Shown: positions 1 to 20,744, numbered from the stretch's first letter. The stretch: 46,646 nucleotides of DNA from an uncultured bacterium (GCA_964443545.1 CAYUCV010000003.1:8868-55513); one strand, 5' to 3'. Program-made: numbers and translations. The notes: generated from the letters alone by a model not told the origin.

Positions 1-732
1 CAGTCCTGCCTCAGCATAGAGAACGCCCTGATGTACAGGGCGCAGATAAACGAGATAGAGCGCTCTATTAAGGGAAGCCGGATGTCGGACCTGGGAGCGG
101 CGGCGGCAGGGGTGGCCCACGAGGCCAAGAACGCGCTTGTCAGCATCTACGCTGTGTCGCAGCTGCTATCCGAAAAAAAGGACGATGCCTCCTTTCTGGA
201 AAAGACCAAGGACCTGGTCTCTTCCGAAGTGGAGAGGATGAAGATACTCATGGAAGGCGTCATCAATTATTCCGAGCCGGCGCCGCTCAGTATCGAACGG
301 CAGGACCTAAAAGAAATGGTCGAGGCAACGGCCATTCTGGTGCGCGACATCGCAAAAGGAAAGAACATCTCTCTTGTGATAGGGCAGGAGTGCAGCCGCT
401 TTGTAAGTGCCGACAGGAACACGATGAAGCAGGTGTTCCTTAACCTTTTCCTAAATGCCATAGAAGCTATCGGAAAGGATGGTACGATCACAGTTTCCTG
501 TGCGGACGCCGATGGTTCAAAGGTAAGGATAATCTTTAAGGACACAGGGCCGGGGATACCGCCGGGCAAGATAAAGAAGATACTGGAGCCTTTTTATACC
601 ACCAAGGAACAAGGTACCGGGCTCGGGCTTGCCATTGTCAAGAAGGCGGTTGAGGCCAACGGCGGCTCGCTTTCTATAGAAAGCAAACCCGGAGAAGGCG
701 CCTCCTTTATTATCAGCCTGGAGCGGGGTTGA
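1..732 (+). CDS. Sensor histidine kinase, C-terminal part (GAF end, HisKA, HATPase); 5' end lies outside the window
   Basis: Frame is open from base 1 (QSCLSIENALMY, a GAF-terminal helix like NQAVVSIDNAVLY of the downstream kinase). H-box AHEAKNAL, N-box NLFLNAIEA, G1 DTGPGI, F-box PFYTTK, G2 GTGLGL. Confidence 0.93.
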   Translation, partial: QSCLSIENALMYRAQINEIERSIKGSRMSDLGAAAAGVAHEAKNALVSIYAVSQLLSEKKDDASFLEKTKDLVSSEVERMKILMEGVINYSEPAPLSIERQDLKEMVEATAILVRDIAKGKNISLVIGQECSRFVSADRNTMKQVFLNLFLNAIEAIGKDGTITVSCADADGSKVRIIFKDTGPGIPPGKIKKILEPFYTTKEQGTGLGLAIVKKAVEANGGSLSIESKPGEGASFIISLERG

Positions 733-766
733 GAAGATACCGTGTTGTAGAATAACCAGGATTTTA

Positions 767-795
767 TGGACAAAATCCCGGGCATATGATAAACT
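767..795 (+). promoter_or_regulatory. Sigma70-type promoter for the methyltransferase-kinase pair, overlapped by an inverted repeat (759-778)
   Basis: TGGACA-17 bp-TAAACT with extended -10 TG. GGATTTT-N6-AAAATCC straddles the -35 element. Confidence 0.55.
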
Positions 796-997
796 TTACT
801 CTAAAAATCGGCTGCTGAAGAAAACCGAAGAGTTTCACCTTAAATAGATCTGAACGATCTGAAAAGGTGTTATTTTACGATAAACAAGAGTAGGCTGTTA
901 AATTGTTTGAGAATAACTCCGAAAAAAGGTTTAAAGTTAACCTCGCCAAGTAGAACTGCGCAAAATCTTTCAGTTAATTTGATAGGAACCCGCTAAA

Positions 998-2044
998 ATG
1001 CCAATCGAAACAGCTGGAGTTAGCCAAGTTGACAAAAGTTTTGAAAGGGAAGTTAAATCATTTAAAGAGTATATTGAAAAGGTCAAGAGCGATCTAGACC
1101 TCTTTGATGAGAAAAACGGATCTCGTGAGGAGCGCATTAGCAATATTGAAAAGCTCAAGATCGGACTGTTCGAAGAGATCGGAAAGCATTTTAACAAAGT
1201 ATGGGAAAGAGTTAAGCAGCTGGACAAAAACTCTTACGCAAAATACAGAAAATATTTCCAGGATAGATTATTGCCTTTCTTTGGATATCCAGAGATCAAC
1301 CATCATATATATAGTAAGCCATTAGGATATGCAGGGGATTTTATTACGATGAATTATATATATGATTTTCATGACAAGCACCTCGGGAATTCTTCTTTTG
1401 AAATACTGATAAACATGTTAACTTGTAATATACCAATATCAAGATCAAACATTAAAAGGAGAGAGCACCTTAGACAAATAATCAAAGATGCTTATGTGAA
1501 ACATGGTGATGAAATAAAAATAGCAAGCATCGCAAGCGGATCAGCGAGAGAATTGCTGGGAATGCTTGAGAATAAGGAGCTCCCCAGGTCGATCGATTTT
1601 GTATGTTTTGATTTTGAGAGCAAAGCCCTTGAATATGTTAAAGAAAATGTGTCAAGGATATATGGCAGTGATAAGTCAGACAATATCAAGCTTATTAAAT
1701 CAAATATTGTTGACCTGGCCAGAAAACCGGAGATAAAGAATGTGCTTAATGGTAGGGATTTGATATATGCTTTTGGGATATACGATTATCTAAGCGATAT
1801 GCTTGCAAAAAGGATAACTAAAATCCTTTTTGAATGCCTAAATCCAGGGGGGCATCTTGTTGTTTGCAATGCTTCGGCTTCAAAAAGCGATCAAAGAGCT
1901 TACTATGAATTTTTGGGAGAATGGGAAATGATCTATAGAACCAATGAGGAATTAGTCAGGTTCTCAGATGGATTGGCGGCCAGAAGCATATCGTTAAAAG
2001 ATGATCCCGATGACTGCTACATCTATCTGACAATTTCCAAATAA
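998..2044 (+). CDS. Class I SAM-dependent methyltransferase, PhcB-like (3-hydroxy fatty acid methyl ester synthase family)
   Basis: Family-typical motifs KPLGYAGDFITMNYIY, IASIASGSAREL (motif I), CFDFESKALEY, DLIYAFGIYDYL, LNPGGHLVVCN, EFLGEWEMIYR. AGGA SD upstream. Confidence 0.8.
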   Translation: MPIETAGVSQVDKSFEREVKSFKEYIEKVKSDLDLFDEKNGSREERISNIEKLKIGLFEEIGKHFNKVWERVKQLDKNSYAKYRKYFQDRLLPFFGYPEINHHIYSKPLGYAGDFITMNYIYDFHDKHLGNSSFEILINMLTCNIPISRSNIKRREHLRQIIKDAYVKHGDEIKIASIASGSARELLGMLENKELPRSIDFVCFDFESKALEYVKENVSRIYGSDKSDNIKLIKSNIVDLARKPEIKNVLNGRDLIYAFGIYDYLSDMLAKRITKILFECLNPGGHLVVCNASASKSDQRAYYEFLGEWEMIYRTNEELVRFSDGLAARSISLKDDPDDCYIYLTISK

Positions 2045-4083
2045 TGATCAATCATTTTATACTTTCGGGACTGATCACTTCTGTCACAACTCTATTCTTG
2101 GCTTTGTTCGTATTTCTTGCTAACCCCAACAAGAGACTCAACCGTTATTTTGCCTTCTATACACTTTGCATTTCCTTATGGAGCATATCAGTTTATATGC
2201 ATCAGCCGACCTTGGCCGGTATTTCTGCGGATATGTGGGGGAAGATCCTTCATGTCGGGTCGATCCTCATTCCTCTCGGCTTTCTGATATTTACATTTGA
2301 GCTTCTTGGCTCTCTCAACAGAGAGAAAATAGTTATATATTCGGCTGGTGTGGCATCGGCAGTATTCATTTATTTAACAATGTTCACCGATCTGTTGATA
2401 AACGGGACTACATATAGGGACTTATACTGCTACCCAACTCCAAGCAAGTATTACATTCTATTCTTTATATATTTTGTATCTTGTGTCATATACGGTCTTT
2501 TCAAATTGGTCAGGAGTTATCAAATATCGGACAATATCAAGAGGAACCAACTGCAGTATTTGATATTTGGCTCAGTTTTTGGTTATCTCGGAGGCTTAGA
2601 CAATTTTTTGATCACGATTGACATAATAGTCTTCCCATTCTATCCCTATGGCGCATATGCAATAGCGATTTATTCTCTTATAACAGCCTACGCGATAGTG
2701 ACTGCCCGCCTCATGGATATCGAGGTAATAATACGGAAGGGGTTGATATATTCGATACTTTCGGTGATATTGACCGCCGTGTATTTTTCGGTGGTGTACG
2801 CCGCAAAGCTGGTGTTTTACAGGCTCACGGGAGCAAATACTCTGTGGTTCATCGTTCCGGCGGTCTTCTTTTTGTCGCTGTTCATCCATCCGCTGTTCTC
2901 CTTTGTCCAGGACTTTGTTGACAAGCGCTTCTTTAAGACCAAGTACGAGGCCGACAAAATAGCCAAAAAGTTCTCGGAGGGCATAAAAAAACTAATGAGG
3001 GCAAAGGACCTGGCCGAGTACATAAACAGGGTGGCGCTGCGCACCTTTAAGCTCAAGGGTAGCGCGGTTTATATTTTTGATGAAGAAGATGGGCTCTACA
3101 AGCGCTGGGACTCAAGGGGTTCTCTGCAGCAGCTATGCCCGCCGGTCATATCTAAAGATGATCCTGTTGTCCTAAAGATGGTATCGGCCAGGGGTATCGT
3201 GCAGGACCTAAAGGCCGAGCACATAAAGATCTGCGTTCCGGCGCTTTCAAAAAGAAAGGGGTACAGCATTTCCGGTTTCCTTCTTGCCGACGAAAAAAAA
3301 TCCGAGGACCAGTTCAGCCAGCAGGACATCATGCTGCTGGAAACGATAGCCAACCAGGCCGTTGTCAGTATAGACAATGCCGTCCTATATTCTGCCAGGA
3401 TAGACGCCCGCAAAAAAGCGCTGCTTGTGGAAAGGCTCAATGAACTCGGGTCCTCCGCCGCCGCGGTGGCCCACCAGACAAGAGCGGCAATGGGGCCGGT
3501 GATAGATTTTGCAGCGCAGCTGCAGCAGCAGTACGCCGACCGCGACTTTGTGGGAAGAGCTCTGTCCAAATTCCCCTTTGATGTGGAAAGATTGCGCCTT
3601 ATTTTGACAGGGATACTGGAATACTCTAGGGAGCTAAAGCTCGGCAGGGTGGAGGAGCTTGACCTTAAAGAAATGGTTTTAGGAGTAGCGTCCCTTATAA
3701 ACGGCAGGGCGCAAGAAAAGGGGATAACCGTTGAGACGGATATCTCTGACGGGGCTTTGGTAAAGGCAGAAAAAGGCCGCTTCAGGGATGTCCTTATCTA
3801 TCTTGCCATCAACTGCCTGGAGGCCCTCCAATACGGAGGCAGCATCAGGATCTCTGCCGAAAAGCGCGGCGATAAAATGCGCATCTACTTTAGCGATAAC
3901 GGTCCGGGAGTTTTGCCGGATGTTCTTATTAAGGTCTTTAACCCGTTCTTTACCACAAAACCGGGCTCCATAGGCCTGGGGCTTTCGATAGTAAAAAAGA
4001 TAATCGAAGGACACGGCGGGAGCGTCTTTATGGAAAGCGAGCCGGGGAAGGGGACAACTGTAATTCTGGAGCTGCCGTCCTAA
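2044..4083 (+). CDS. Membrane histidine kinase: N-terminal 7TM (HisKA_7TM-like) sensor, extra TM helices, GAF, HisKA/HATPase with degenerate H-box
   Basis: About 9 hydrophobic segments, YAIVTARLMDI end-of-7TM motif, GAF-like GFLLADEKKSEDQFSQQDIMLLETIANQA, AHQTRAA, DNGPG, PFFTTK, GLGL. TAATG overlap with the methyltransferase stop. Confidence 0.9.
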   Translation: MINHFILSGLITSVTTLFLALFVFLANPNKRLNRYFAFYTLCISLWSISVYMHQPTLAGISADMWGKILHVGSILIPLGFLIFTFELLGSLNREKIVIYSAGVASAVFIYLTMFTDLLINGTTYRDLYCYPTPSKYYILFFIYFVSCVIYGLFKLVRSYQISDNIKRNQLQYLIFGSVFGYLGGLDNFLITIDIIVFPFYPYGAYAIAIYSLITAYAIVTARLMDIEVIIRKGLIYSILSVILTAVYFSVVYAAKLVFYRLTGANTLWFIVPAVFFLSLFIHPLFSFVQDFVDKRFFKTKYEADKIAKKFSEGIKKLMRAKDLAEYINRVALRTFKLKGSAVYIFDEEDGLYKRWDSRGSLQQLCPPVISKDDPVVLKMVSARGIVQDLKAEHIKICVPALSKRKGYSISGFLLADEKKSEDQFSQQDIMLLETIANQAVVSIDNAVLYSARIDARKKALLVERLNELGSSAAAVAHQTRAAMGPVIDFAAQLQQQYADRDFVGRALSKFPFDVERLRLILTGILEYSRELKLGRVEELDLKEMVLGVASLINGRAQEKGITVETDISDGALVKAEKGRFRDVLIYLAINCLEALQYGGSIRISAEKRGDKMRIYFSDNGPGVLPDVLIKVFNPFFTTKPGSIGLGLSIVKKIIEGHGGSVFMESEPGKGTTVILELPS

Positions 4084-5324
4084 TCCTTATACTTTCTTGC
4101 TATCAGTATCGCGTTGTGCCCGCCAAAGCCGAATGAATTGCTCATGGCGATCTCCACTTTCATCTGCCTTCCCTTGTTGGGCACATAATCAAGGTCGCAG
4201 TTGGGGTCGGGGTTTTCATAATTGATGGTGGGGTGCACAAAATCCTCCTGCAGGGACTTTGCTACCGCGGCAAACTCTACCGCGCCCGCGGCTCCCAATA
4301 GATGCCCGGTCATGGACTTTGTAGAGCTGATGGCAAGCTTGTTTGCATGCGCTCCGAACACTTTTTTGATGGCCATTGTCTCTAGCTTGTCGTTAAGTTC
4401 TGTCGAGGTCCCGTGGGCGTTTATATAGTCCACCTGCTCCGGTTTTATTCCCGCGCTTTTGATAGCCGCTTCCATACACCGCACGGCCCCGCCGCCTTGT
4501 GAATCGGGTGCGGTCATGTGGAAAGCGTCGCCACTCATCCCATAGCCTATCACTTCGCAGTAAATGCGGGCCCCGCGCTTTTTGGCGCTTTCAAGCTCTT
4601 CGAGCACAACAATGCCGCTGCCTTCGCCCATAACAAATCCGTCGCGGCCGGCGTCAAACGGCCTTGAGGCCTTTTCCGGAGCGTCGTTCCTGCACGAAAG
4701 GGCCTGAGCGGAGCAGAAACCGGCTATTCCAAGCGGAGTGATCGAGGCTTCGGAGCCCCCCGCAAACATGACGTTGGCAGCTCCTCTTTTGATGAGCTCG
4801 TAAGCATCGCCGATCGAATGCGTTCCCGAAGCGCAGGCGGTAGTTGTGCAGCTGTTGGGGCCTTTGGCGCCAAGGTGTATGGAGGTGACCCCGGCGGCCA
4901 TGTCGTTTATCATAAGAGGGACCATAAAGGGAGAGCACTTGGACGGCCCTTTTTCCTTTAGCGTATAGGCCTGCTGTTCCAAAAATTCTATGCCTCCGAT
5001 ACCGGAGCCTATCAGAACGCCTGTAAGAGGCGCGGTTTGTTCGTTTATTGCCAGTCCGCTGTCGTCCAGGGCCATTTTTGAAGCAGCCACGGCAAACTGG
5101 ATGAACTTTACCAGCCTGCGCGCTTCCTTCTTGTCAAAATACTTGAGCGGGTCAAAGTCTTTTACCTGTCCGGCAATCTGGGAGTCAAATCCGGAGGGGT
5201 CAAAATGGGTGATGCGGCTTATCCCGCTTTTTCCTTCTTTAAGAGCGCTCCAAAAAGAATCCGCGTCGTTACCCAGAGGGGTTACAGCGCCCAGTCCCGT
5301 CACCACCACCCTACGCTCCGGCAT
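4080..5324 (-). CDS. fabF: 3-oxoacyl-ACP synthase II
   Basis: RRVVVTGLG, TTACASG (catalytic Cys), INAHGTST, TGHLLGAAG, SNSFGFGGHN. Confidence 0.97.
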   Translation of the reverse strand: MPERRVVVTGLGAVTPLGNDADSFWSALKEGKSGISRITHFDPSGFDSQIAGQVKDFDPLKYFDKKEARRLVKFIQFAVAASKMALDDSGLAINEQTAPLTGVLIGSGIGGIEFLEQQAYTLKEKGPSKCSPFMVPLMINDMAAGVTSIHLGAKGPNSCTTTACASGTHSIGDAYELIKRGAANVMFAGGSEASITPLGIAGFCSAQALSCRNDAPEKASRPFDAGRDGFVMGEGSGIVVLEELESAKKRGARIYCEVIGYGMSGDAFHMTAPDSQGGGAVRCMEAAIKSAGIKPEQVDYINAHGTSTELNDKLETMAIKKVFGAHANKLAISSTKSMTGHLLGAAGAVEFAAVAKSLQEDFVHPTINYENPDPNCDLDYVPNKGRQMKVEIAMSNSFGFGGHNAILIARKYKD

Positions 5325-7410: not shown

Positions 7411-8318
7411 AGAACGGCTCCTTTTACAGAAACGCTGTCCTCAACATTGTATATTTTAGCATTTTCCAGGGTCTTTTTAACAAGCCCCGACAGTATCTTG
7501 CCGCAGCCTATCTCCACAAAGGTGGCAAAACCCTGCAGGGATAGGTTTTTTAGGGTGTCTTCCCAGAGCACAGGGCTGGTCACCTGCTTTACAAGCAGTT
7601 CTTTGATCTTTGCCGCGTCGGTCTGGGGGGAGGCGGTCACATTAGAATATACCGGGAACGAAGGGCTCTTAAAACCGGTCTTGTCCAGCTCGACAGCCAG
7701 TTTGTCCGCCGCCGGCTTCATAAGCGAGCAGTGGAAAGGGGCGCTTACAGCAAGGGGGATTATTTTTTTTGCGCCGGCCTCTTTGCAGAGCCGTCCGGCC
7801 TCTTCAACCCCTTCTTTTGTACCCGAGATCACTATCTGTCCCGGGCTGTTAAAATTGGCCGGCTCCACAACGCCTTTTGAAGAAGCCGCAGCGCAGCAGG
7901 CTGCCAGTTTTTCCCTGTCCAATCCCAGCACCGCGGACATGGCCCCTTGCCCTGCCGGCACCGCCTCCTGCATGAACCTGCCGCGCAGATGAACTATCCT
8001 AACGGCATCCTCAAAAGACAGCGCGCCCGAGGCCACCAGCGCCGAATACTCGCCCAGGCTGTGGCCGGCGGCCGCCTTTGGGGTTTTTCCAAGGGACATA
8101 AAAGCGGCGGTGCTTACGGTCAGTATCGCGGGCTGGGCTATTTCTGTGGATTTTAAGGCATCGTCGGGACCTTCAAAGCAGAGTTTGGATAGTTCAAATC
8201 CAAGGGCCCTGTCGGCTTTGGCAAAGATCTCTTTTGCCGCCTCAAAATTGTCATAGAGGTCTTTGCCCATGCCGGCTTTTTGGGAGCCCTGTCCGGGAAA
8301 AATGAACACGCTTGTCAA
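7407..8318 (-). CDS. fabD: Malonyl-CoA:ACP transacylase
   Basis: FPGQGSQ, GHSLGEY, LAVSAPFH. Confidence 0.97.
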   Translation of the reverse strand: MTSVFIFPGQGSQKAGMGKDLYDNFEAAKEIFAKADRALGFELSKLCFEGPDDALKSTEIAQPAILTVSTAAFMSLGKTPKAAAGHSLGEYSALVASGALSFEDAVRIVHLRGRFMQEAVPAGQGAMSAVLGLDREKLAACCAAASSKGVVEPANFNSPGQIVISGTKEGVEEAGRLCKEAGAKKIIPLAVSAPFHCSLMKPAADKLAVELDKTGFKSPSFPVYSNVTASPQTDAAKIKELLVKQVTSPVLWEDTLKNLSLQGFATFVEIGCGKILSGLVKKTLENAKIYNVEDSVSVKGAVL

Positions 8319-9520
8319 GAAAGGAGCTCCTTGAAGGTTTTGGTCATGGCGGGAAGCACTTCAAAAAGGTCTCCCACAATGCCGTAGGTGGCCACATTAA
8401 AAATAGGTGCGAATTGGTCTTTGTTTATGGCCACGATCACATCTGACGAGGACATCCCTGCCAAATGCTGGATGGCCCCCGAAATGCCGCAGGCTATATA
8501 CAGTTTGGGGCTTACCGTCTTTCCGGTCTGTCCCACCTGGTGGAACTGGGATATCCAGCCGGCGTCCACAGTGGCGCGCGAGGCCCCCACTGCCCCGCCG
8601 ATGATATCTGCCAGGTCCTTTACAAGCTTAAAATTTTCGGCGCATCCAAGTCCGCGTCCGCCTGACACGATTATCTCGGCCTCCGCCAGGTTCACTTTCT
8701 TTTCTGTTGATTGTATTATCTCGAGAAGTTTGACCCTCAGCGACTTTTCCGATATCTTTACGGGTAACTCTATTATCCGGCCTTTTCTTGACGCGTCCGG
8801 CTGGAGTTTTTTGAACACTTTGGGCCGTACAGTGGCCATTTGCGGCCTAAAATCTGGAGAAATGATGGTGGCCATGATGTTGCCGCCAAAAGCGGGGCGG
8901 GTCTGGCGCAGGATCTTCTTTTCGGGGTCTATGTCAAGCCCGGTGCAGTCCGCGGTAAGCCCCACTCTTATCCTTGCCGCGATCCTTGAGGCAAGGTCTC
9001 TTCCGGTGGTGGTGGCCCCCATAAGCACTATCGCCGGGTTATGGGCTTTTATCAGTTCTACAATGGTATCGCAGTAGGGTTCGGTAGTGTAGTTCTTCAA
9101 TTTTGCATCGCTGCACACATAGACCTTATCTGCCCCGTAGTGTATCAGCTCCTGAGCGGCCTTCTTGATGCCCTCATCGCCTAAAAGCACCGCGGCCACT
9201 TCTTCGCCCAGGTCCGCAGCAAGTTTTCTGGCTTCGGCGATAAGCTCCATAGCCACTCCCTGCACTTTGCCCTGGTGCTGCTCGGCAAATACCCAGATAC
9301 CCTTAAAGCCGGAGAGGTCCTTTTTGGGGCCTTCTTTCTTGGTAACGGTGATCTCGATAGCTTTGAATTTGCAGGGGCCCACGCAGGCGCCGCACAGGAC
9401 GCATTTATCGTTGATGACGGCCAGTTTTCCGTGCATTTCTATCGCCCCGTACGGGCAGGAAGGCACGCAAAGCCTGCAGCCTTTGCATTTTTCCGCTATT
9501 ACTCTTATTCCTTCGGGCAT
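8315..9520 (-). CDS. etfA: Electron transfer flavoprotein alpha subunit with N-terminal 2x[4Fe-4S] ferredoxin domain
   Basis: CKGCRLCVPSCP and CVLCGACVGPC; GLTADCT, RPAFGGNIMATI, QVGQTGKTV, GISGAIQHLAGM. Confidence 0.94.
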   Translation of the reverse strand: MPEGIRVIAEKCKGCRLCVPSCPYGAIEMHGKLAVINDKCVLCGACVGPCKFKAIEITVTKKEGPKKDLSGFKGIWVFAEQHQGKVQGVAMELIAEARKLAADLGEEVAAVLLGDEGIKKAAQELIHYGADKVYVCSDAKLKNYTTEPYCDTIVELIKAHNPAIVLMGATTTGRDLASRIAARIRVGLTADCTGLDIDPEKKILRQTRPAFGGNIMATIISPDFRPQMATVRPKVFKKLQPDASRKGRIIELPVKISEKSLRVKLLEIIQSTEKKVNLAEAEIIVSGGRGLGCAENFKLVKDLADIIGGAVGASRATVDAGWISQFHQVGQTGKTVSPKLYIACGISGAIQHLAGMSSSDVIVAINKDQFAPIFNVATYGIVGDLFEVLPAMTKTFKELLS

Positions 9521-9521
9521 A

Positions 9522-10304
9522 TCAAAGCACCTTTTGTTCTTTTAGTTTGCCAAACAGGGTTTTTGCTATTATTTCTGGCTCGCCCTCAAGCAGCTCGCTC
9601 TTTCCCCTTGGCGGCGGCGTAAATATCCGAACCACTTTTGTGGGAGAGCCGTTCAAACCAGTATTATTCTCGTCTGCCGCAATATCTTTTGCGCTCCACG
9701 AAGGGATCGCCATCTTTTTTGCCCGCATCTGCCCCTTTAGCGAAGGCATTCTGGGCTCATTTATCTGCTTAATGACGGTAACAGCGGCCGGAAGATCCGT
9801 TTCTACTATCTCGGAAGTGTCCTCCAACTGGCGCTTGACCCGTATCTTGCCGCCTTCGGACTCTATGCTGATGGCAAAGGTGATCTGAGGGATGTCCAAA
9901 AACTCCGCTACCCCGGGGCCCACCTGCGCGGTGTCTCCGTCTATGGCCTGCTTTCCAAAAAGCACCAGATCATAGGCGCCGAGTTTTTTGATCGCCTGCG
10001 AAAGGGTGTAAGAGGTGGCCCAGGTGTCCGCCCCGGCAAAGGCCCTGTCGGATATGAGGACGGCTTCGTCCGCTCCCATTGCTATTGCTGTCTTTAGCGC
10101 GTCGGCCGCCTGCGGAGGGCCCATGGTGATAACGGTAACTTTGCCGCCGCCTGCGTCCCGGAGCCTCAAAGCGGCTTCAACGGCGTTCTCGTCAAAGGGA
10201 TTGATGATGCTCTTTACGCCCTCCCTGATGAGGGTGTTGGTTTTAGGGTCTATCCTGACATCGTTGGTGTCAGGTACCTGTTTTATGCAGACTACAATGT
10301 TCAT
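9522..10304 (-). CDS. etfB: Electron transfer flavoprotein beta subunit
   Basis: VCIKQVPDT, INPFDENAVEAA, DRAFAGADTWAT, GKQAIDGDTAQVGP. Confidence 0.95.
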   Translation of the reverse strand: MNIVVCIKQVPDTNDVRIDPKTNTLIREGVKSIINPFDENAVEAALRLRDAGGGKVTVITMGPPQAADALKTAIAMGADEAVLISDRAFAGADTWATSYTLSQAIKKLGAYDLVLFGKQAIDGDTAQVGPGVAEFLDIPQITFAISIESEGGKIRVKRQLEDTSEIVETDLPAAVTVIKQINEPRMPSLKGQMRAKKMAIPSWSAKDIAADENNTGLNGSPTKVVRIFTPPPRGKSELLEGEPEIIAKTLFGKLKEQKVL

Positions 10305-10331
10305 CTGTTCATTTTATTTTAACATACAACA

Positions 10332-10352
10332 GCCCCGCTTAAAAAGCGGGGC
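10332..10352. repeat. Perfect 9-bp palindromic stem-loop in the ACAD-etfB spacer
   Basis: GCCCCGCTT-AAA-AAGCGGGGC. Confidence 0.6.
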
Positions 10353-10372
10353 CGGATTATCGGTCTTTTTTG

Positions 10373-11530
10373 TTATTTTGTGGCAGCGGATTCTTTGATC
10401 AGCTGCAGGGCGATAACATTCCTCTGTATCTGGTTGGTGCCCTCGTATATCTGGGTTATCTTGGCGTCCCTCATGTATTTTTCCACGGGGTATTCTTTCA
10501 TATAGCCGTAGCCGCCCAGTATCTGTACCGCATCGACGGTGACCTTCATGGAAACATCGCTGGCAAAAAGTTTGCTCATGGCCGAATCCCTGGAGATGCT
10601 ATCTGTGCCGGTGTCAACGGTCCTGGCTGTTGCAATCACAAGGGCCCTTGCGGCTTCTATCTGCGTGGCCATGTCCGCAAGTATGTGCTGGACCCCCTGG
10701 AAAGAAGAAACGGGTTTGCCGAACTGCACCCTTGTCCTTGAGTAGTTAAGAGCTTCTTCAAAAGCGCCCTGCGCTATGCCCACCGCCTGTGCTCCTATGC
10801 CCGGCCTGGTCCTGTCCAGGGTCTTCATCGCGACAATGAACCCCATGCCTTCTTTACCAAGCATCTGTGATTTGTGTATCTTGCAGTCCTGGAACACAAG
10901 TTCCCTTGTTGCGGAGCATCTGATCCCCATCTTGTTCTCTTTTTTGCCGAAGGTAAAACCCGGCATGCCTTTTTCAAGGATAAAAGCGGTGGCCCCGCGG
11001 CTGCCCCTTTTTTTGTCCGTCATTGCGATCACCGTGTAGATCTCGGCTTCCCCGCCGTTGGTGATCCACTGCTTGGTCCCGTTGAGAATGTAGTAGTCGC
11101 CGTCCTTTTTGGCTGTGGTCTCTATCCCGCTGGCATCAGATCCCGCGTTGGCCTCGGTAAGGCCAAAGGCCGCCAGCTTTTTGCCGGAGGCAATTGGGGG
11201 AAGATACTTCTTTTTCTGTTCTTCCGTGCCGAAAAGCACTAAGGGATAGCAGCCCAGCGCTGATGCGGCAAAAGTGACGCCTACGCCTCCGCAGATCCTG
11301 CTGACCTCTTCGGTGGCCAGACAGAATTCAAGGCAGCCGCCGCCAAACCCGCCGTATTCGGGAGCTATATAGAGCCCGCAAAGATCGGCTTCGGCAAAGA
11401 CCTTCATGAGTTCCCAGGGGAACTGGCCAGTTTCGTCAAGTTCGGCCCTTAAGGGTTTCACTTTTTCTTCAGAAATCTTCCTCGCAAGGTCCTTGATCAT
11501 CTTTTGCTCATCAGTCAACAAATAGTCCAT
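10373..11530 (-). CDS. Acyl-CoA dehydrogenase (butyryl-CoA dehydrogenase/Bcd-like)
   Basis: AFGLTEANAGSDA, LNGTKQWITNG, RVQFGKP, QILGGYGYMKEYPVEKYMRDAKITQIYEGTNQIQR. Start taken at MDYLL (11530). Confidence 0.93.
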   Translation of the reverse strand: MDYLLTDEQKMIKDLARKISEEKVKPLRAELDETGQFPWELMKVFAEADLCGLYIAPEYGGFGGGCLEFCLATEEVSRICGGVGVTFAASALGCYPLVLFGTEEQKKKYLPPIASGKKLAAFGLTEANAGSDASGIETTAKKDGDYYILNGTKQWITNGGEAEIYTVIAMTDKKRGSRGATAFILEKGMPGFTFGKKENKMGIRCSATRELVFQDCKIHKSQMLGKEGMGFIVAMKTLDRTRPGIGAQAVGIAQGAFEEALNYSRTRVQFGKPVSSFQGVQHILADMATQIEAARALVIATARTVDTGTDSISRDSAMSKLFASDVSMKVTVDAVQILGGYGYMKEYPVEKYMRDAKITQIYEGTNQIQRNVIALQLIKESAATK

Positions 11531-11535
11531 TGCCG

Positions 11536-12513
11536 CTAAACCCCCCATTTAATAATATTGGCGCCCGATGTGAGCCCGGCGCCAAAGCCGACCACCGCAA
11601 TTATATCACCTTTCTTTATCCTGCCGTCTTTGAGCGCTTCGTCAAGGGCGATAGGGATCGAAGCCGCGGAAGTGTTGCCGTATTTTTCCAGATTTACAAA
11701 GACCTTTTCTTTTGGGATGCCGAATTTTTTCATTGCGTGGTCTATTATCCTTATATTGGCCTGGTGAGGGATCAAAAGGTCTATTCTATCGTGGGTAAGG
11801 CCGGCTGAGCCAAGGGCGCTGAGCAGGGTATTTTCAAAAGCTTTTACCGCAAATTTAAAAACTTCCTTGCCGTTCATGGTTATACAGCGTTCTTTTTCGT
11901 CCTTTGGCCTGGGGTTCCTGCTGCCCCCGCCGGGCATTGTAAGATACGGCGCTCCGGTCCCGTCCGAGGTCAGCGTGCTTGCAAGTATGCCTTCTCCTGC
12001 TTTTGCCTGCGAAAGCACCACCGCTCCGGCTCCGTCGCCAAAAAGAACGCAGGTTCCGCGGTCGCTCCAATCAAGATATTTTGCCAGAGTGTCCGCGCCT
12101 ACAACAAGAGCCTTTTTGCTGCTGCCCGCCTTAAAAAAATTGGAAGCAACGGTCAGGGCAAAATTAAACCCCGAGCAGGCGGCCGAAACATCAAAAGCGG
12201 CGGCATTTTTTGCGCCGATCTTGCCCTGAATGATGCAGCCGACAGAAGGGAACAGCGTGTCGGGGGTGGAAGTGCCTACTATTATAAGGTCGAGCTCCTC
12301 CGGGGAGGTTTTGGAAGCCTTAAGGGCTTTTTCTACAGCGAGCATGGCAAGGTCCGAAGTTGAGGTTTTTTCGTCCGATACCCTTCGCTGCCCTATGCCG
12401 GTCCTTGTCTTTATCCACTCGTCCGAAGTGTCAACTATCTTTGACAGATCAAGGTTGGTCAGGACCTTTTCGGGCAGCGCGGAGCCTGTACCTATTATCT
12501 TTGCGTTGCTCAT
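11536..12513 (-). CDS. fabH: 3-oxoacyl-ACP synthase III
   Basis: DTSDEWIKTRTGI, AACSGF, LFGDGAGA, PHQAN, YGNTSAASIP. Confidence 0.97.
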   Translation of the reverse strand: MSNAKIIGTGSALPEKVLTNLDLSKIVDTSDEWIKTRTGIGQRRVSDEKTSTSDLAMLAVEKALKASKTSPEELDLIIVGTSTPDTLFPSVGCIIQGKIGAKNAAAFDVSAACSGFNFALTVASNFFKAGSSKKALVVGADTLAKYLDWSDRGTCVLFGDGAGAVVLSQAKAGEGILASTLTSDGTGAPYLTMPGGGSRNPRPKDEKERCITMNGKEVFKFAVKAFENTLLSALGSAGLTHDRIDLLIPHQANIRIIDHAMKKFGIPKEKVFVNLEKYGNTSAASIPIALDEALKDGRIKKGDIIAVVGFGAGLTSGANIIKWGV

Positions 12514-14196: not shown

Positions 14197-15090
14197 TCAG
14201 CCTCTGGCCCTGGGATGGGCCTTGTTGTGGACGCTTTTGAGCCTTTCTTTGGTTATATGTGTATATACCTGAGTGGTAGAGAGGCTGCTGTGGCCCAAAA
14301 GTTCCTGAACGCTGCGAAGATCGGCCCCCCGCTCAAGAAGATGGGTAGCAAAACTATGCCTTAGGCTGTGAGGGGTCACTTTTTTGGCGATTCCCGCGGC
14401 CTTTGAATATCTTGCGATGAGGCGCTCTATGCTGCGGCCCGTGAGCCGGCCCCCGAGGCGGCCCAAAAACAGCGCTCTGTTCCTCTCCTTTTTGCCGTGA
14501 AGTTTGGGACGGGCCGACTTAATATAATCAAAGAGAGCGGCCCTGGCGTATGAGCCTATAAGGACCACTCTTTCTTTTGAGCCTTTCCCCATTACGAGGA
14601 CCTCGCCGCTTTCAGGGTCGATATCCGAAAGGTTAAGCGCAGCAGCTTCGCTTACGCGCATTCCCGAGGCGTAAAGCAGTTCAAGGATGGCCTTGTCCCT
14701 CATTCCCTGCGGGGTTTTTATGTTCACCGCCTCAAGAAGAGAGGATATTTCCTCTTCATACAAGAACGAGGGGAGTTTTTTCTCCGCCTTTGGGATCGAA
14801 ACGGCTTTCCAGATATTCTTGTCGAGCCTTTTTTCCTTTACAAGATATCTGTAAAAACTGCGCAGGCACGAGATCTTTCTTGCTATCGATTTTCTGCCGT
14901 GCTTCTTTTCCTCGAGCCTGACCAGATAAGTGCGCGCAAGGTTCCTGGTCATAGAAAGGTGGGGCAGGGAATTTTCCTTCAAAAATGCAGAGTATTCTTT
15001 AAGGTCCAGCAGGTAGCTGCTCAAAGTGTGGGGGGAGTATTTTCTTTCGTCCCTCAGGTACGACAAAAAGCCTTGTATGTCATTATCCAT
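14197..15090 (-). CDS. xerC: Tyrosine recombinase XerC/XerD family
   Basis: N-terminal SAM-like domain (YSPHTLSSY), LYASGMRVSE, GKGSKER, HSLRHSFATHLL, LLGHSSLSTTQVYT. Confidence 0.88.
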   Translation of the reverse strand: MDNDIQGFLSYLRDERKYSPHTLSSYLLDLKEYSAFLKENSLPHLSMTRNLARTYLVRLEEKKHGRKSIARKISCLRSFYRYLVKEKRLDKNIWKAVSIPKAEKKLPSFLYEEEISSLLEAVNIKTPQGMRDKAILELLYASGMRVSEAAALNLSDIDPESGEVLVMGKGSKERVVLIGSYARAALFDYIKSARPKLHGKKERNRALFLGRLGGRLTGRSIERLIARYSKAAGIAKKVTPHSLRHSFATHLLERGADLRSVQELLGHSSLSTTQVYTHITKERLKSVHNKAHPRARG

Positions 15091-15093
15091 CTG

Positions 15094-15531
15094 CTAAAGC
15101 AGTCCAAACCTCGTCTTTGCCTCGGCGGTCATGGGGTGGATCTTTCCGCCCTCTTTAAACCATTCGTCCTTTTCCGCCCCCTTGTCAAGGGACCTGGTGT
15201 CTATATGTATGAACTTATCTTCGGGATAATATCCCAGCCCCCGTATTTCGGGTATGGTTTTTACAAAATTGTAAAGGTCGTTAAGCTTAACCCCGTCTAT
15301 GTATATATGAGCGGCTTTGCCCTGGCTGTGGGCATTTTTTTTGCCGATGTTGTGCTTGTCGTTATAGTACTCGCACCTAAAGGCAGAGGCTATCCTCGGA
15401 GTCCTTTTAAAGTTGAAGCCTATCATCTCCAGCGCGCCCACCAGCCCAAGATGCACCCTGATGTCATTCCTGCACTGGCCGCACCGGCACACAAAATCCC
15501 TCGAATTAAAGTGTTCGCTCAAATTGCCCAT
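15094..15531 (-). CDS. Peptidase M15A-like (D-Ala-D-Ala carboxypeptidase family) metallopeptidase
   Basis: LSEHF..DFVCRCG, SAFRC..YN, HSQGKAA, GLGYY, FIHIDTR. Confidence 0.82.
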   Translation of the reverse strand: MGNLSEHFNSRDFVCRCGQCRNDIRVHLGLVGALEMIGFNFKRTPRIASAFRCEYYNDKHNIGKKNAHSQGKAAHIYIDGVKLNDLYNFVKTIPEIRGLGYYPEDKFIHIDTRSLDKGAEKDEWFKEGGKIHPMTAEAKTRFGLL

Positions 15532-15540
15532 TGCAAAGTA

Positions 15541-15569
15541 ATTTTAGCATCCGTTGAGGGCTTTGGCAA
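15541..15569 (-). promoter_or_regulatory. Sigma70 promoter for the M15 peptidase-xerC genes
   Basis: TTGCCA-17 bp-TAAAAT with extended -10 TG; ATG 9 nt after the -10. Confidence 0.6.
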
Positions 15570-15582
15570 ACTGTGATAAAAT
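15554..15582 (+). promoter_or_regulatory. Sigma70 promoter for metK (overlaps the divergent promoter)
   Basis: TTGAGG-17 bp-TAAAAT with extended -10 TG. Confidence 0.5.
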
Positions 15583-15622
15583 TGCATTTGTCCGTGAAAA
15601 TATAGGAAACAAAGGAGTTTTT

Positions 15623-16816
15623 ATGTCCAAGAAGCATTTTTTTACTTCCGAATCGGTGACGGAGGGACATCCGGACAAGATGTGCGACCAGATATCCGAT
15701 TCCATTCTTGATGCCATCATAGAAAAAGACCCTCCTGCCAGGGTGGCAGTCGAGGCGCTTACCACCAACGGCCTTGTTGTTGTTGCCGGAGAGGTAACCA
15801 CAGGCACTTATGTCGACATCCCTTCCATTGTAAGGAACACGATAAAGGATATCGGCTATGTGAGCAGGGAAATAGGCTTTGATTATGAGACCTGCGGCGT
15901 CCTTGTCTCGATCAAGGAGCAGTCCAAGGACATTGCCCGCGGGGTTGACACCGCTCTGGAGATCCGCGGAGGCGAGGTCGTGAAAGAGGACCTGGAAGGG
16001 CTGGGGGCGGGGGACCAGGGTCTTATGTTCGGCTTTGCCTGCAGCGAAACTCCGGAGTTGATGCCTCTTCCGATCAGTCTTGCTCAAAAACTTGCCAAAA
16101 AACTGGCCGATGTAAGAAAAAGCGGAGAACTAAAATACCTGAGGGCCGACGGGAAATCCCAGGTCACAGTGGAATACCAGGATAATAAACCCGTCAGGGT
16201 GGACAGCGTGCTCATAGCTTCGCAGCATGACCCGGATATCGATTCCGAGCAGATAAAAAAGGACATCATAGAAAAGGTGGTCAAAAAAATAGTTCCCGAG
16301 AAACTTATGGACAAGAACACCAAGTTCTATGTGAATCCGACGGGCCGGTTCGTGATAGGAGGGCCCCAGGGCGACACCGGGCTTACCGGAAGAAAGATCA
16401 TAGTTGATACCTACGGAGGCTATGCCAGGCACGGTGGCGGCGCGTTTTCCGGAAAAGACCCAACAAAGGTGGACCGTTCCGCCTGCTACGCGGTCAGATA
16501 TGTTGCCAAGAACATAGTCGCGGCAGGGCTGGCAGAGCGGTGTGAGGTCCAGGTCGCCTATGCCATAGGCGTTGCACGGCCGATGTCGGTAATGGTGGAG
16601 ACTTTTGGCACGGGAAAGATCTCCGACAACAAGATCCAGGAACTTATCAACAAGCATTTTGACCTAAGGCCCGGGATAATAATCAGGGAACTAAAGTTAA
16701 GGCGGCCTCTTTACAGGCAGGTGGCTTCTTACGGGCACTTCGGCAGGCCTGAGCTGGATTTGCCGTGGGAGAGCACCGACAAAGCCGCGGCGCTTAAGAA
16801 GGATGCCGGGATCTAG
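15623..16816 (+). CDS. metK: S-adenosylmethionine synthetase
   Basis: [35 protein letters not shown]. Start at MSKKH behind AAAGGAG SD. Confidence 0.98.
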
Positions 16817-17917: not shown

Positions 17918-20635
17918 TTAATCAGCCACCTTTACTAGTTTCATAGAAACGACTTTCGAGATCCCGGGCTCTTCCATAGTGACGCCGTAAAGAGTGTCGG
18001 CCGAAGACATGGTCCTTTTGCTGTGCGTGATCACTATTATCTGGGAATGCCTGGAAAAGTCCCGGAGCATCCTGGTAAAGCGCATAACATTTATTTCGTC
18101 CAGCGCGGCGTCTACCTCGTCCATAAAGCAGAACGGGGACGGCTGGGTCTTCATCAGCGCAAACAAAAGGGCAATAGCGGTAAGGGCTTTTTCCCCTCCC
18201 GACATTAGCGAAAGCGAAAGCCATTTTTTCCCGGAGGGTTTGGCCATTATCTCTATTCCCGCCTCAAGAGGGTCGCCCTCCAGCAGGGTTATCTTTGCTT
18301 CTCCGCCCTCGAACAGGCTGGAAAATATCTCTGTAAAATGCGCGCTTACGGACTCGAGGTTGGCAAGAAAACTTTCCCTGGCCTCTTTGTCCAGCTGCCT
18401 GATAAGAGTGTTCAGATTGTCCCTGGCCGAAACAAGGTCAGTGTACTGGCTCTCTATAAAGGAAAGCCGCTCCTTGGACGCTTCGTACTCTTCTATCGCC
18501 AGCAGACTGACCGCTCCAAGCGCCCTTATCCTTGCTTTGAGCCCTTCTGTCTCCTCCTTGGCTTTTCCCATGTTGGAGGGGCTCTCTATGCTGCTTGATT
18601 CCACTTCCTCGACCGTAAGCCCGTACTCCTCGCGCAAAAGCGCCTCTGTTGTCTGCCACTCGCCCTCTATCTTGGCCAGGGTCACCTGTTCCCTCGAAAG
18701 ATTGTCCCTAAGCACCCGGTCCTCTCCCGAAACCGACCTCATTTTTTCCTCAAGCTCCTCCAGAAGGGCATTGACGGACCCTTTTTCTTTGACGAGTTCC
18801 TGTATCTTAACAGAAAGCCGCTCCTCCTCCTCTTTTAGCGAGGGCAGGCTTGCCTCAAGCTCAACGGCTTCTTTTTCGCAACCCTCCAGCCTTGCGGCAA
18901 GGTCCGATGCAGATGACCGTTTTTCCTGCGATTGGCGGACAAGATAGGACAGCTCTGTTCTCAGGTTCTCGATCTCTTCTTTTTTTGAGGCATATGTCTG
19001 CTCATAGTTCTTAAAGCCAGCCCTGACTTCTGCAAGGTCCAGGATCGCCTTTTCCTTCTGCAGCGAAAGCTCCTTTGTCTTTTGCTCCATCTCCGAGCAT
19101 TTTTCTGCTGCTTTGCTTGCTCCGGACCTGATCTCCTCAAGTTCCGAGCTTTGTCTTGCTGCAGCGGTCTCCAGCTCTTTTACCCTTGCCGCCTTCTTGT
19201 CGATGCTTTCTTTAAGTATGGACAACTCTATCTCGATTTTTTTGTTGATCTCAAGTTTCCTCTCCGAGATGCGTCCGATGAGCGACTGCTCAACCTGCGG
19301 GACCAAGAGCAGTTCTTTTTCTATGAACTCAATGTCGTTCTTGAGCCCGCTGAGATTTTCCGCAAAAGAGGTATCCTGCTCCAGTGATTCCCTGGCGAAC
19401 TTTAGCTCCAGTTCCAGCTCCGATATCGCGTGTTTTTTTGAAGAAAGCTCCATCTCCTTTTCCACGACGGGGTTCTTAAGCGAGTTCCAGAAACCTATAG
19501 ATTCCTCGATCTTAGAGGAGATCGCTGAAAAATTCTTTTCTGCCTCTTCGAGTATGCGCCTCGAAGCCCCGTAATCCTCGGTCAGAGCGGCCAGTATAGC
19601 TTCTTTTTCTTCGAGCCTAGGTTTTTTTTGGGAGATCCCGTCCTCAATGGAGGCGGCCTCGTTCTTAAGGGCAACTATCCGTTCCTCAAGCTGCAGTGAG
19701 CGCTCCTTGTTTGTTGCTATGGTGCTCTTTGCCTCCTCCATTTTTTCTCTCAGCCTGGAGGATCGGTCCCTTATCTCGTCCATGGAGGAATCTATGCTTC
19801 TTATGCGGTCTTTAAGGCGGACCCTTTCTTTTTCGTCCTTTTCTACATCGCTCATGGCCCCGCTGCTTTTGCTCTCGAGCTCGGCTATTCTTGCCAGGCA
19901 GTTGTCTTTGCGCTCCTTCAGGCTTTTTAGCACGCGCTTCGAAAGTCCTATCTCAATGTTCTTGAGCTCTTCTTTTAGCGAAGTGTACTCTCTGGCTTTT
20001 TCGGCCTGGGAAGCAAGATTGGCGATGACATCCTTGATCTCTCCCCTCAAGTCGTTGACCCTCAAAAGGTTCTGCTCGGTGGCTATCAGGCGGCGCTCGG
20101 AGGCCCTTTTCCTGAACTTGTATTTGCCGATGCCGGCGGCCTCTTCAAAAAGCTGCCTTCTGTCCTCCGGTTTCGAAAGAAGGATCGAATCCACCTGACC
20201 CTGGTTAATGATGGAATAAGCTCTGCCGCCTATGCCCGTGTCAAGGAACAGTTCCTTTATGTCCTTGAGCCTGCAGGGATTCTTATTTAGGAAAAATTCG
20301 CTTTCTCCGGACCTGAAAATGCGCCTTTTTATCGACACTTCGCTGTAATCTGTCTTCATTTTGCCGTCGGAATTGTCTATTGTGATGGAGACCTCAGCCA
20401 TGGAAAGGGCTTTCTTAAGGGAGGTGCCTGCAAAGATCAGCTGGTCCAGGCTCTCGCCGCGCATTTCTTTTATGCTCTGCTCTCCTATCACGAACCTCAC
20501 GGCGTCTATCACATTTGATTTGCCGCAACCGTTGGGCCCCACGACGCCCGTGATGGCGCTCGAGGGATCAAGATCAATGGAAGTTTTTTCCGCAAAGGTC
20601 TTAAAACCTTTTATTGTCAGATTTTTCAGGAACAA
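17918..20635 (-). CDS. smc: SMC-family chromosome segregation ATPase, short form without recognisable hinge
   Basis: GFKTFA, Walker A GPNGCGKSN, YSIINQG, LMSGGEKAL, Walker B FMDEVDAALD, IVITH; long coiled coils; only 905 aa. Confidence 0.88.
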   Translation of the reverse strand: MFLKNLTIKGFKTFAEKTSIDLDPSSAITGVVGPNGCGKSNVIDAVRFVIGEQSIKEMRGESLDQLIFAGTSLKKALSMAEVSITIDNSDGKMKTDYSEVSIKRRIFRSGESEFFLNKNPCRLKDIKELFLDTGIGGRAYSIINQGQVDSILLSKPEDRRQLFEEAAGIGKYKFRKRASERRLIATEQNLLRVNDLRGEIKDVIANLASQAEKAREYTSLKEELKNIEIGLSKRVLKSLKERKDNCLARIAELESKSSGAMSDVEKDEKERVRLKDRIRSIDSSMDEIRDRSSRLREKMEEAKSTIATNKERSLQLEERIVALKNEAASIEDGISQKKPRLEEKEAILAALTEDYGASRRILEEAEKNFSAISSKIEESIGFWNSLKNPVVEKEMELSSKKHAISELELELKFARESLEQDTSFAENLSGLKNDIEFIEKELLLVPQVEQSLIGRISERKLEINKKIEIELSILKESIDKKAARVKELETAAARQSSELEEIRSGASKAAEKCSEMEQKTKELSLQKEKAILDLAEVRAGFKNYEQTYASKKEEIENLRTELSYLVRQSQEKRSSASDLAARLEGCEKEAVELEASLPSLKEEEERLSVKIQELVKEKGSVNALLEELEEKMRSVSGEDRVLRDNLSREQVTLAKIEGEWQTTEALLREEYGLTVEEVESSSIESPSNMGKAKEETEGLKARIRALGAVSLLAIEEYEASKERLSFIESQYTDLVSARDNLNTLIRQLDKEARESFLANLESVSAHFTEIFSSLFEGGEAKITLLEGDPLEAGIEIMAKPSGKKWLSLSLMSGGEKALTAIALLFALMKTQPSPFCFMDEVDAALDEINVMRFTRMLRDFSRHSQIIVITHSKRTMSSADTLYGVTMEEPGISKVVSMKLVKVAD

Positions 20636-20661
20636 AGGTGGCTTCTTCCTCCCAATTTCAG

Positions 20662-20685
20662 ATTATAGCACACGGCTTTGTGTGC
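20662..20685 (-). promoter_or_regulatory. Extended -10 promoter of smc with overlapping palindrome
   Basis: TGCTATAAT (20662-20670) and GCACAC-N6-GTGTGC (20668-20685); GGAGG SD downstream. Confidence 0.5.
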
Positions 20686-20709
20686 CTTGCCCGCTCATGC
20701 CGTTTTTAT

Positions 20710-20737
20710 TTGAAAAAGACCGCCCCTGTGGTATAAT
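20710..20737 (+). promoter_or_regulatory. Sigma70 promoter of the SLH operon (leaderless geometry)
   Basis: TTGAAA-16 bp-TATAAT with extended -10 TG; ATG 7 nt downstream, no SD. Confidence 0.65.
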
Positions 20738-20744
20738 TTTTCCA

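Follow-up and report, generated by a model that had tools for sequence, protein, structure and literature searches.

A methyltransferase gene coupled by overlap to the gene for a membrane-bound sensor histidine kinase, together forming a putative synthase-receptor module, lies at the beginning of a 46,646-nt stretch of DNA from an uncultured bacterium (GCA_964443545.1, CAYUCV010000003.1:8868-55513). This whole stretch is referred to here as the window (G000:C3:8868-55513 in our numbering; locus label L002), and the further 8.9 kb of the contig upstream of it were also examined. The source genome consists of 1.26 Mb in 71 contigs and is estimated to be 91% complete, and the contig that carries the locus is 55.5 kb long. 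The methyltransferase gene (MT) is preceded by one histidine kinase gene (HK1) and followed by a second (HK2), and beyond HK2 the locus runs into a convergent fatty-acid biosynthesis (fab) operon (Table 1). The stop codon of MT (TAA) and the ATG of HK2 share 1 nt in the junction TAATG, and the stop codons of HK2 and the convergent fabF overlap as well. A preliminary description of this DNA had listed these open reading frames, the TAATG coupling, three MT motifs and a fab operon ending convergently at 4080, and all of these are present in the sequence.

Table 1. Features of the locus. Plain coordinates are window positions; coordinates beginning with G000:C3 are contig positions.
Feature	Position	Strand	Length	Description
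HK1, 3' part	1..732	+	243 aa	C-terminal part: linker end, HisKA, HATPase_c (93 bits)
HK1, whole gene	G000:C3:7851-9599		582 aa	7TM sensor and kinase core, without GAF domain
HK1/MT intergenic region	733..997		265 nt	AT-rich
MT	998..2044	+	348 aa	PhcB-like class I S-adenosylmethionine (SAM)-dependent methyltransferase: helical cap (residues 13-172), then Rossmann domain
HK2	2044..4083	+	679 aa	HisKA_7TM sensor histidine kinase
fabF	4080..5324	-		Last gene of the minus-strand fab operon, which reaches plsX at 13484
Reductase-like gene	G000:C3:6765-7847		360 aa	NAD-binding; homologue of acyl-acyl carrier protein (ACP) reductase and of the PigE N-terminus; 4 nt before HK1

All three motifs of MT fall in invariant or near-invariant columns of a 42-sequence family alignment (P108, Y111, G113 and D114; G260, D263 and Y264; W309 and R314). 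The AlphaFold2 model of MT (pLDDT 93.9) has a long helical cap ahead of a Rossmann domain, and the best Foldseek matches of this model were SgvM, the uncharacterised 3ocj and many O-methyltransferases, all of them small-molecule methyltransferases. The motif set together with the class I fold and its helical cap place MT in the PhcB-like superfamily (KPLGYAGD-type, overlapping PF12147). Pfam gave sub-threshold matches only (Methyltransf_12 with E 0.009; Methyltransf_20, PF12147, with E 0.067 and 12.8 bits vs. a cutoff of 21), and the PF12147 cutoff is passed by the more distant relative P0040 (36.5 bits). No NCBIfam model matched at E up to 0.1, and a PDB search with the single MT sequence returned nothing significant.

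In a search of 5.8 billion proteins we found 43 relatives of MT, the closest with 59% identity. Several relatives with 37–46% identity bear the JGI product name 'extracellular factor (EF) 3-hydroxypalmitic acid methyl ester biosynthesis protein', which we take to be the KEGG name for PhcB. Among the matches listed by the genome scan described below, the named organisms of the closest relatives are Omnitrophota, Nitrospirota, Planctomycetia and WOR-1. In an exhaustive HMMER search against 1.84 billion representatives, 3724 proteins passed an E threshold of 0.001, of which 1964 also passed 1e-10 and 114 passed 1e-30. Another family-profile search was dominated by Planctomycetota proteins fused to cyclic-nucleotide-binding domains and did not return a named PhcB. 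In plasmid sequences of Enterobacter ludwigii, a domain within an annotated type I polyketide synthase is ~30% identical (E 1e-24) to the MT part of a family member with such a fusion.

In many of the relatives, a receiver, PilZ or cyclic-nucleotide-binding domain is added at the N-terminus. When an alignment of 114 sequences, comprising the window MT and 113 of the best-scoring representatives, was scanned with Pfam, PilZ was found in 24, a receiver in four, and a FeeM-type N-acyl amino acid synthase and CheR in one each. Receiver-fused relatives include P0013, P0015 and P0027, and they are also present at the loci L006, L099, L110 and L111. The single FeeM-type fusion hints that some members of the family may methylate N-acyl amino acids. 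The window MT has no receiver, PilZ or cyclic-nucleotide-binding domain.

PhcB is known from the Phc system, in which its methyl ester is a released signal sensed by the adjacent membrane kinase PhcS, encoded in the same gene order, according to the part of the literature available to us (PMC7694676). The available part of one account terms the system genus-specific to Ralstonia (PMC9102662), while that of another reports it in Cupriavidus and R. pickettii, with phcBSRQ conserved in Cupriavidus (PMC2864759). In place of Ralstonia PhcB itself we used the Cupriavidus orthologue P0278 as a stand-in, because phcBSRQ is conserved in Cupriavidus and the cluster-mates of P0278 carry the EF/3-OH-PAME name, in which 3-OH-PAME stands for the methyl ester of 3-hydroxypalmitic acid. 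In BLASTP, MT and P0278 are 23% identical over 269 aa (E 3e-22). The alignment begins at residue 164 of P0278, spans the helical cap and the methyltransferase domain, and covers the pre-Rossmann KPLGYAGD as well as DYL(SD) and EW..IYR. This alignment establishes MT as a distant homologue of PhcB.

The PhcB proteins of Burkholderiales are ~463–475 aa long and start with an N-terminal domain of ~160 residues, unlike the 348-aa window MT, which lacks that domain. A family-profile search of 301 Burkholderiales genomes gave a strong match (E of 1e-118 or better) in 10. At one Burkholderiales locus (L091) a 464-aa MT overlaps by 4 nt with the next gene, which encodes a 448-aa HisKA/HATPase kinase; the relatives of this MT include proteins of Cupriavidus, Janthinobacterium and Paraburkholderia, whose cluster-mates bear the EF/3-OH-PAME name. 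A search of a plasmid collection turned up rhizobial methyltransferases and a polyketide synthase methyltransferase domain, and no Ralstonia or Cupriavidus phcB was found there. A tree of 139 family members built with FastTree unites the 13 Burkholderiales PhcB rows in a single clade (support 100) that is embedded among sequences of Verrucomicrobiota, and the window MT falls across the tree from them in a separate 45-row clade (support 95). MT is not an orthologue of PhcB; it is a member of the PhcB-like superfamily.

The two systems share their layout. In the PhcB-PhcS pair of Ralstonia and Cupriavidus, as in the window, the methyltransferase gene precedes that of a membrane sensor kinase, and the stop codon of the first often overlaps the start codon of the second (as at L091 and here); PhcS and HK2 both have a polytopic sensor without a large periplasmic domain. 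They differ in that HK2 combines HisKA_7TM with a GAF-like region and has no detectable kinship to the PhcS sensor (hhalign, 0.5%). Furthermore, neither a PhcR-like receiver-kinase protein nor PhcQ was found near the window MT, and the window locus has two receptor paralogues and an acyl-ACP-reductase-like gene, unlike the Phc system. The PhcB-like synthase of the preliminary description can therefore be kept as a true distant homologue, but not as a counterpart of PhcB in a Phc system, since it belongs to another clade and comes without the N-terminal domain, a PhcS-type sensor or PhcR.

The pairing of MT with a kinase recurs in many genomes. A scan of one genome per species gave at least 600 matching stretches, 592 of which were confirmed, and the best 80 were studied. 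At 66 of these 80 loci a kinase starts within 3.5 kb downstream of MT (11 7TM, 34 hybrid, 18 convergent and three other kinases), while 10 have no kinase and four have too little flank. We then added 80 metagenome loci and six loci of relatives and removed MTs more than ~90% alike, which left 150 MT genes. A downstream kinase within 3.5 kb is found for 124 of them (36 7TM, 84 PhcS-type and four other); 13 have no kinase and 13 have less than 1.5 kb of flank. The adjacency of MT and kinase is far beyond chance.

In profile-profile comparison with hhalign, the ~900-aa hybrid kinases proved to have a sensor homologous to that of PhcS (probability 100%, E 5e-39), as did the convergent alphaproteobacterial kinases (probability 97%). 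The 7TM sensor matched none of the PhcS-type sensors (probability <1%). The MT clades track the receptor type: the 7TM-linked (support 95), the convergent-kinase-linked (97) and the Burkholderiales PhcB (100) sequences each make up one branch of the tree, and the five receptor-type labels require 6 changes on the tree vs. 40.8 in shuffles. Within the clade of the window MT all 12 members with known context have a 7TM kinase downstream. The recurrent linkage of MT homologues to 7TM kinases, on which the preliminary description had made its reading depend, is thus found, and it is specific to the clade of the window MT. PhcS-type modules outside Burkholderiales (in Verrucomicrobiota, Myxococcota, Acidobacteriota, Parvibaculaceae and others) have the same MT superfamily and the same MT-kinase pairing as the window locus, but their kinase sensor is homologous to that of PhcS (hhalign 97–100%), and they often consist of a ~900-aa hybrid kinase followed by a ~420-aa receiver-kinase protein.

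Among 40 related genomes an MT match was present in eight, with 41% as the best identity. A genome of the same genus (G302) contains four MT matches in three loci (L189, L190 and L191), every one of which also encodes a 7TM kinase and a small receiver protein. None of these MTs exceeds 37% identity to the window MT, which suggests that the MT modules undergo rapid diversification or exchange. A metagenome contig (L099:7273-15665) carries three consecutive PhcB-like MT genes, two of them receiver-fused, interleaved with two 7TM kinase genes, and a small receiver gene precedes this array.

HK2 matches HisKA_7TM (PF16927) over residues 10–226 with 49.4 bits vs. a cutoff of 28.6, and its hydrophobic segments extend to residue ~288. 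Downstream of this sensor follow a GAF-like region (residues 323–445), the H-box and HATPase_c (residues 579–678). The GAF_3 score is 20.1 bits vs. a cutoff of 27, and the L005 homologue of HK2 passes GAF_2 (30.6 vs. 28.6 bits). The full HK1 protein was also above the HisKA_7TM cutoff (31.7 bits) in the whole-genome family search. HK1 and HK2 are paralogues: their 7TM regions are 26% identical over 314 aa and their kinase cores 35% over 241 aa. HK1 had previously been described as a paralogous GAF kinase; the paralogy holds for both the 7TM region and the kinase core, but the GAF domain does not, as Pfam found none in full HK1 and ~35 residues stand in place of the ~125-residue GAF region of HK2.

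The source genome encodes three HisKA_7TM kinases and nine receiver-domain proteins, three of which are of NtrC-like length. Since HK1 and HK2 score best against AtoS/ZraS-type models, an NtrC-type regulator is a reasonable guess for their partner, as far as model scores can tell. HK2 also resembles PrsK, the PEP-CTERM system kinase (TIGR02916), with residues 16–678 aligning to model positions 10–679 and with several transmembrane segments, a GAF or (in HK2) GAF-like region and a kinase core in both. Its score of 87.5 bits vs. an equivalog cutoff of 300 sets it apart, and an assignment of HK2 as PrsK was rejected.

Genes with a role in lipid handling recur beside MT in the 7TM clade. A FadL/TodX outer-membrane channel gene adjoins MT at nine loci (L005, L007, L009, L011, L105, L107, L113, L115 and L119), and after dereplication FadL is found within 5 kb at 7 of 36 7TM-type and 18 of 84 PhcS-type loci. 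Within 4 kb of MT, the 7TM-type loci have a ketosynthase in 4 of 36 cases, an ACP in 3 of 36 and an acyl-ACP-reductase-like protein in 2 of 36 (plus the window locus), while none of the three was seen near any of the 84 PhcS-type loci. In L005, L007 and L108 the ketosynthase and ACP genes lie directly upstream of MT on the same strand. The ketosynthases of L005 and L007 are extra copies, since their genomes have further ketosynthase matches elsewhere. A lipid-like substrate, in line with the lipid-like signal proposed in the preliminary description, gains support from these recurrent FadL, ketosynthase/ACP and acyl-ACP-reductase-like neighbours.

BioC is a malonyl-ACP O-methyltransferase, i.e., a class I SAM-dependent carboxyl O-methyltransferase, and its ACP-bound substrate is then elongated by ketosynthases. 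The ketosynthase-ACP-MT arrangement of L005, L007 and L108 resembles this scheme, but BioC is not known to be linked to kinases. The window MT is not a BioC match, given the lack of any NCBIfam match noted above.

The 360-aa protein encoded upstream of HK1 is homologous to the N-terminal, thioester-reducing part of PigE (229 bits, equivalog cutoff 850; PDB 4ppm, E 8e-40). It also resembles the cyanobacterial acyl-ACP reductase (PDB 6jzu, E 2.8e-30) and matches positions 37–335 of the 339 in the model TIGR04058. Although this homology is full length, its 150.6 bits are below the equivalog cutoff of 449.7, and the protein was not accepted as a TIGR04058 long-chain acyl-ACP reductase. Unlike PigE, it has no aminotransferase domain; PigE reduces a thioester according to the available part of its description (PMC8341465). 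In L010 a homologue of the 360-aa protein (25% identity over 361 aa, E 2e-18) is encoded between MT and its kinase, and in L193, a relative from the same order, another is encoded directly upstream of MT. Another type of enzyme, an ICMT/PEMT-type membrane methyltransferase, is encoded between MT and the 7TM kinase at two loci (L003:9051-10678 and L008:2453-3229), and L003 additionally encodes a further class I methyltransferase, similar to 2-ketoarginine and AprA-type enzymes.

The minus-strand fab operon of the window comprises fabF, a nitronate-monooxygenase-type (FabK-like) gene, acpP, fabG, fabD, the genes for EtfA, EtfB and an acyl-CoA dehydrogenase, fabH and plsX. The convergent fabF is the single ketosynthase match in the window genome, and we regard it as context for the locus. 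The same tail-to-tail order, with kinases, MT and a 7TM/GAF kinase followed by convergent fabF and acpP, is seen in L192, which belongs to a different family of the same order, so the arrangement may be an inherited gene order. The fab adjacency counts neither as independent support nor as a refutation, and the dedicated ketosynthase/ACP pairs at other loci are a better argument for a link to acyl-ACP. Between fabH and fabD (8315-11548, minus strand) lie the genes for the acyl-CoA dehydrogenase, EtfB and an EtfA with an N-terminal 4Fe-4S ferredoxin domain. This Bcd/Etf-like set is unusually placed in a fab operon and might act in enoyl reduction.

With moderate confidence, we read the locus as a synthase-receptor module for a methylated, fatty-acyl-derived hydrophobic signal, similar to PhcB/PhcS but with a different receptor and probably a different ligand. 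MT would use SAM to methylate a fatty-acyl-derived metabolite and, by analogy with PhcB, the most likely reaction would be the conversion of a free carboxyl to a neutral methyl ester by O-methylation. The acyl chain would be supplied by the housekeeping fatty-acid synthase and possibly be processed by the acyl-ACP-reductase-like enzyme encoded two genes upstream of MT. The hydrophobic product would then partition into membranes, where it might be sensed within the bilayer by the polytopic HisKA_7TM domain of HK2 and perhaps also of HK1, and the kinases would phosphorylate a response regulator encoded elsewhere in the genome.

The same logic is found in CqsA/CqsS and LqsA/LqsS (alpha-hydroxyketone) and in RpfF/RpfC (diffusible signal factor, DSF), where a hydrophobic, fatty-acyl-derived autoinducer is made by one synthase and detected by an adjacent polytopic membrane histidine kinase. 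The synthases CqsA, LqsA and RpfF are, unlike MT, pyridoxal-phosphate-dependent acyltransferases or a crotonase, and the sensors belong to other families.

Several observations weigh against a signalling module of this kind. The identity of MT to the PhcB stand-in is only 23% and the two are in different clades, and the HK2 receptor is unrelated to PhcS (hhalign <1%). No receiver domain or response regulator was found on the 55.5-kb contig, and no FadL over the cutoff was found in the window's 91%-complete genome. The product of an acyl-ACP reductase would be an aldehyde, and it is not evident how this could undergo carboxyl methylation. Among solved structures, the best match of the family profile is CheR, a protein carboxyl methyltransferase (5ftw, E 5.6e-5). 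The receiver- and PilZ-fused relatives (4 and 24 of 114) fit MT equally well as the output of a signalling pathway. The neighbourhood counts were obtained by simple longest-ORF (open reading frame) calling with profiles built from the same loci, and the related genomes in them are not independent. The product class is assigned by analogy rather than by chemistry.

Some of these observations would agree with a circuit for lipid homeostasis, in which the 7TM kinases monitor a property of the membrane or a hydrophobic compound from outside, and MT is the enzymatic output of the two-component system and modifies a membrane lipid or fatty acid in response, with no cell-to-cell signal involved. The receiver fusions look as if the adjacent kinase controlled MT activity, and the fusions to PilZ and cyclic-nucleotide-binding domains put MT downstream of second messengers. 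However, the window MT has none of the three domains, and autoinduction would likewise predict a regulated synthase. The ICMT/PEMT-type membrane methyltransferases of L003 and L008 would also suit such a circuit, as would the fab operon that adjoins the locus here and in L192, but the FadL channels fit the traffic of a hydrophobic molecule across the outer membrane. The sole characterised relative, according to the available part of its description, makes a released signal that is sensed by the adjacent kinase (PMC7694676). On balance we consider a purely homeostatic role, the main rival to a signalling module, rather unlikely.

The match to CheR raises the question of whether MT could instead be an adaptation enzyme, which methylates glutamate carboxyls of the adjacent kinase or kinases and in this way tunes their sensitivity. 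The strict MT-kinase pairing would fit an enzyme and its substrate, one of the 114 sequences matches Pfam CheR, and CheR-type annotations are attached to a family member from Paraburkholderia and to a gene on a Deinococcus plasmid. Yet Pfam gave no CheR match for the window MT, and the top 50 Foldseek matches are all small-molecule methyltransferases without a CheR among them. The neighbouring genes for ACP, ketosynthase, FadL and reductase indicate a lipid, and the PhcB product is, in the same partly available description, a small molecule. No CheB-like demethylase turned up, although no search was aimed at one. An adaptation enzyme is improbable on this evidence. More improbable still is a generic methyltransferase that happens to stand beside kinases and fab genes. 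It would be compatible with the sub-cutoff Pfam matches, the absence of NCBIfam matches and the convergent fab adjacency, but not with a kinase within 3.5 kb downstream of 124 of the 150 dereplicated MT genes, the 1-nt overlap of MT and HK2 and the agreement between MT clades and kinase type. For the MT-kinase pair, pure coincidence is excluded.

The intergenic region between HK1 and MT may contain the promoter of MT and HK2. A single, weak sigma-70-like match is found in it at 767–795. A hairpin with an 11-bp stem (756–781) lies just past the HK1 stop and was terminator-like in the scan on the minus strand only; the results of both the sigma-70 and the terminator scans are near chance level. 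No sigma-54-like promoter site was found in 733–997, and the window as a whole has fewer such matches than shuffles. Upstream of the locus are an AbiEi/AbiEii toxin-antitoxin pair (G000:C3:5045-6492) and a 1229-aa protein (G000:C3:1264-4953) with a weak DUF2460 match. Past the fab operon, the regions 14197-16816 and 20361-22400 of the window encode a tyrosine recombinase (XerC/D-like), the SAM synthetase MetK and an SLH-domain protein. The location of metK ~11 kb away from a SAM-using methyltransferase is probably a coincidence.

The FabF of the window falls into the same 90%-identity cluster as a protein whose name derives from a metagenome-assembled genome of Candidatus Margulisiibacteriota. 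This single clue suggests that the host is a Margulisbacterium. In the NCBI taxonomy Candidatus Margulisiibacteriota is placed beside Cyanobacteriota/Melainabacteria, and the host lineage is probably a sister group of Cyanobacteria.

IMG/KEGG-style annotation already labels some of the MT relatives as PhcB. Published accounts treat the Phc system as a trait of Ralstonia (and Cupriavidus), as far as their available parts go (PMC9102662, PMC7694676, PMC2864759). Within a literature search of partial coverage, we found no report of PhcB-like modules in other phyla or together with HisKA_7TM kinases, and an equally partial search on quorum sensing in Omnitrophota gave no report of PhcB-like modules. 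The synthase family comprises at least 1964 representative clusters (E up to 1e-10) and is almost always found beside a sensor kinase, and one of its branches, in uncultured small-genome lineages, pairs it with a different receptor. This pattern suggests a use of lipid-like methylated signals far outside the single group known for them. It is possible, and we propose it only tentatively, that the PhcB-like MT/kinase modules are a bacteria-wide family that signals by lipid-derived methylated molecules and has recruited at least two unrelated intramembrane receptors, the PhcS-type and HisKA_7TM. The ligands of the 7TM branch would then be made via dedicated ketosynthase/ACP or acyl-ACP-reductase-like enzymes, pass through FadL and be new chemical entities, not 3-hydroxy fatty acid methyl esters, and in the 1.26-Mb genome studied here two paralogues would read the signal. 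These molecules would offer a first candidate class of ligands for HisKA_7TM kinases. Should the products be released signals, a large and unexplored kind of communication between bacteria would lie in this family, which could also supply biosensors with new pairs of ligand and receptor.

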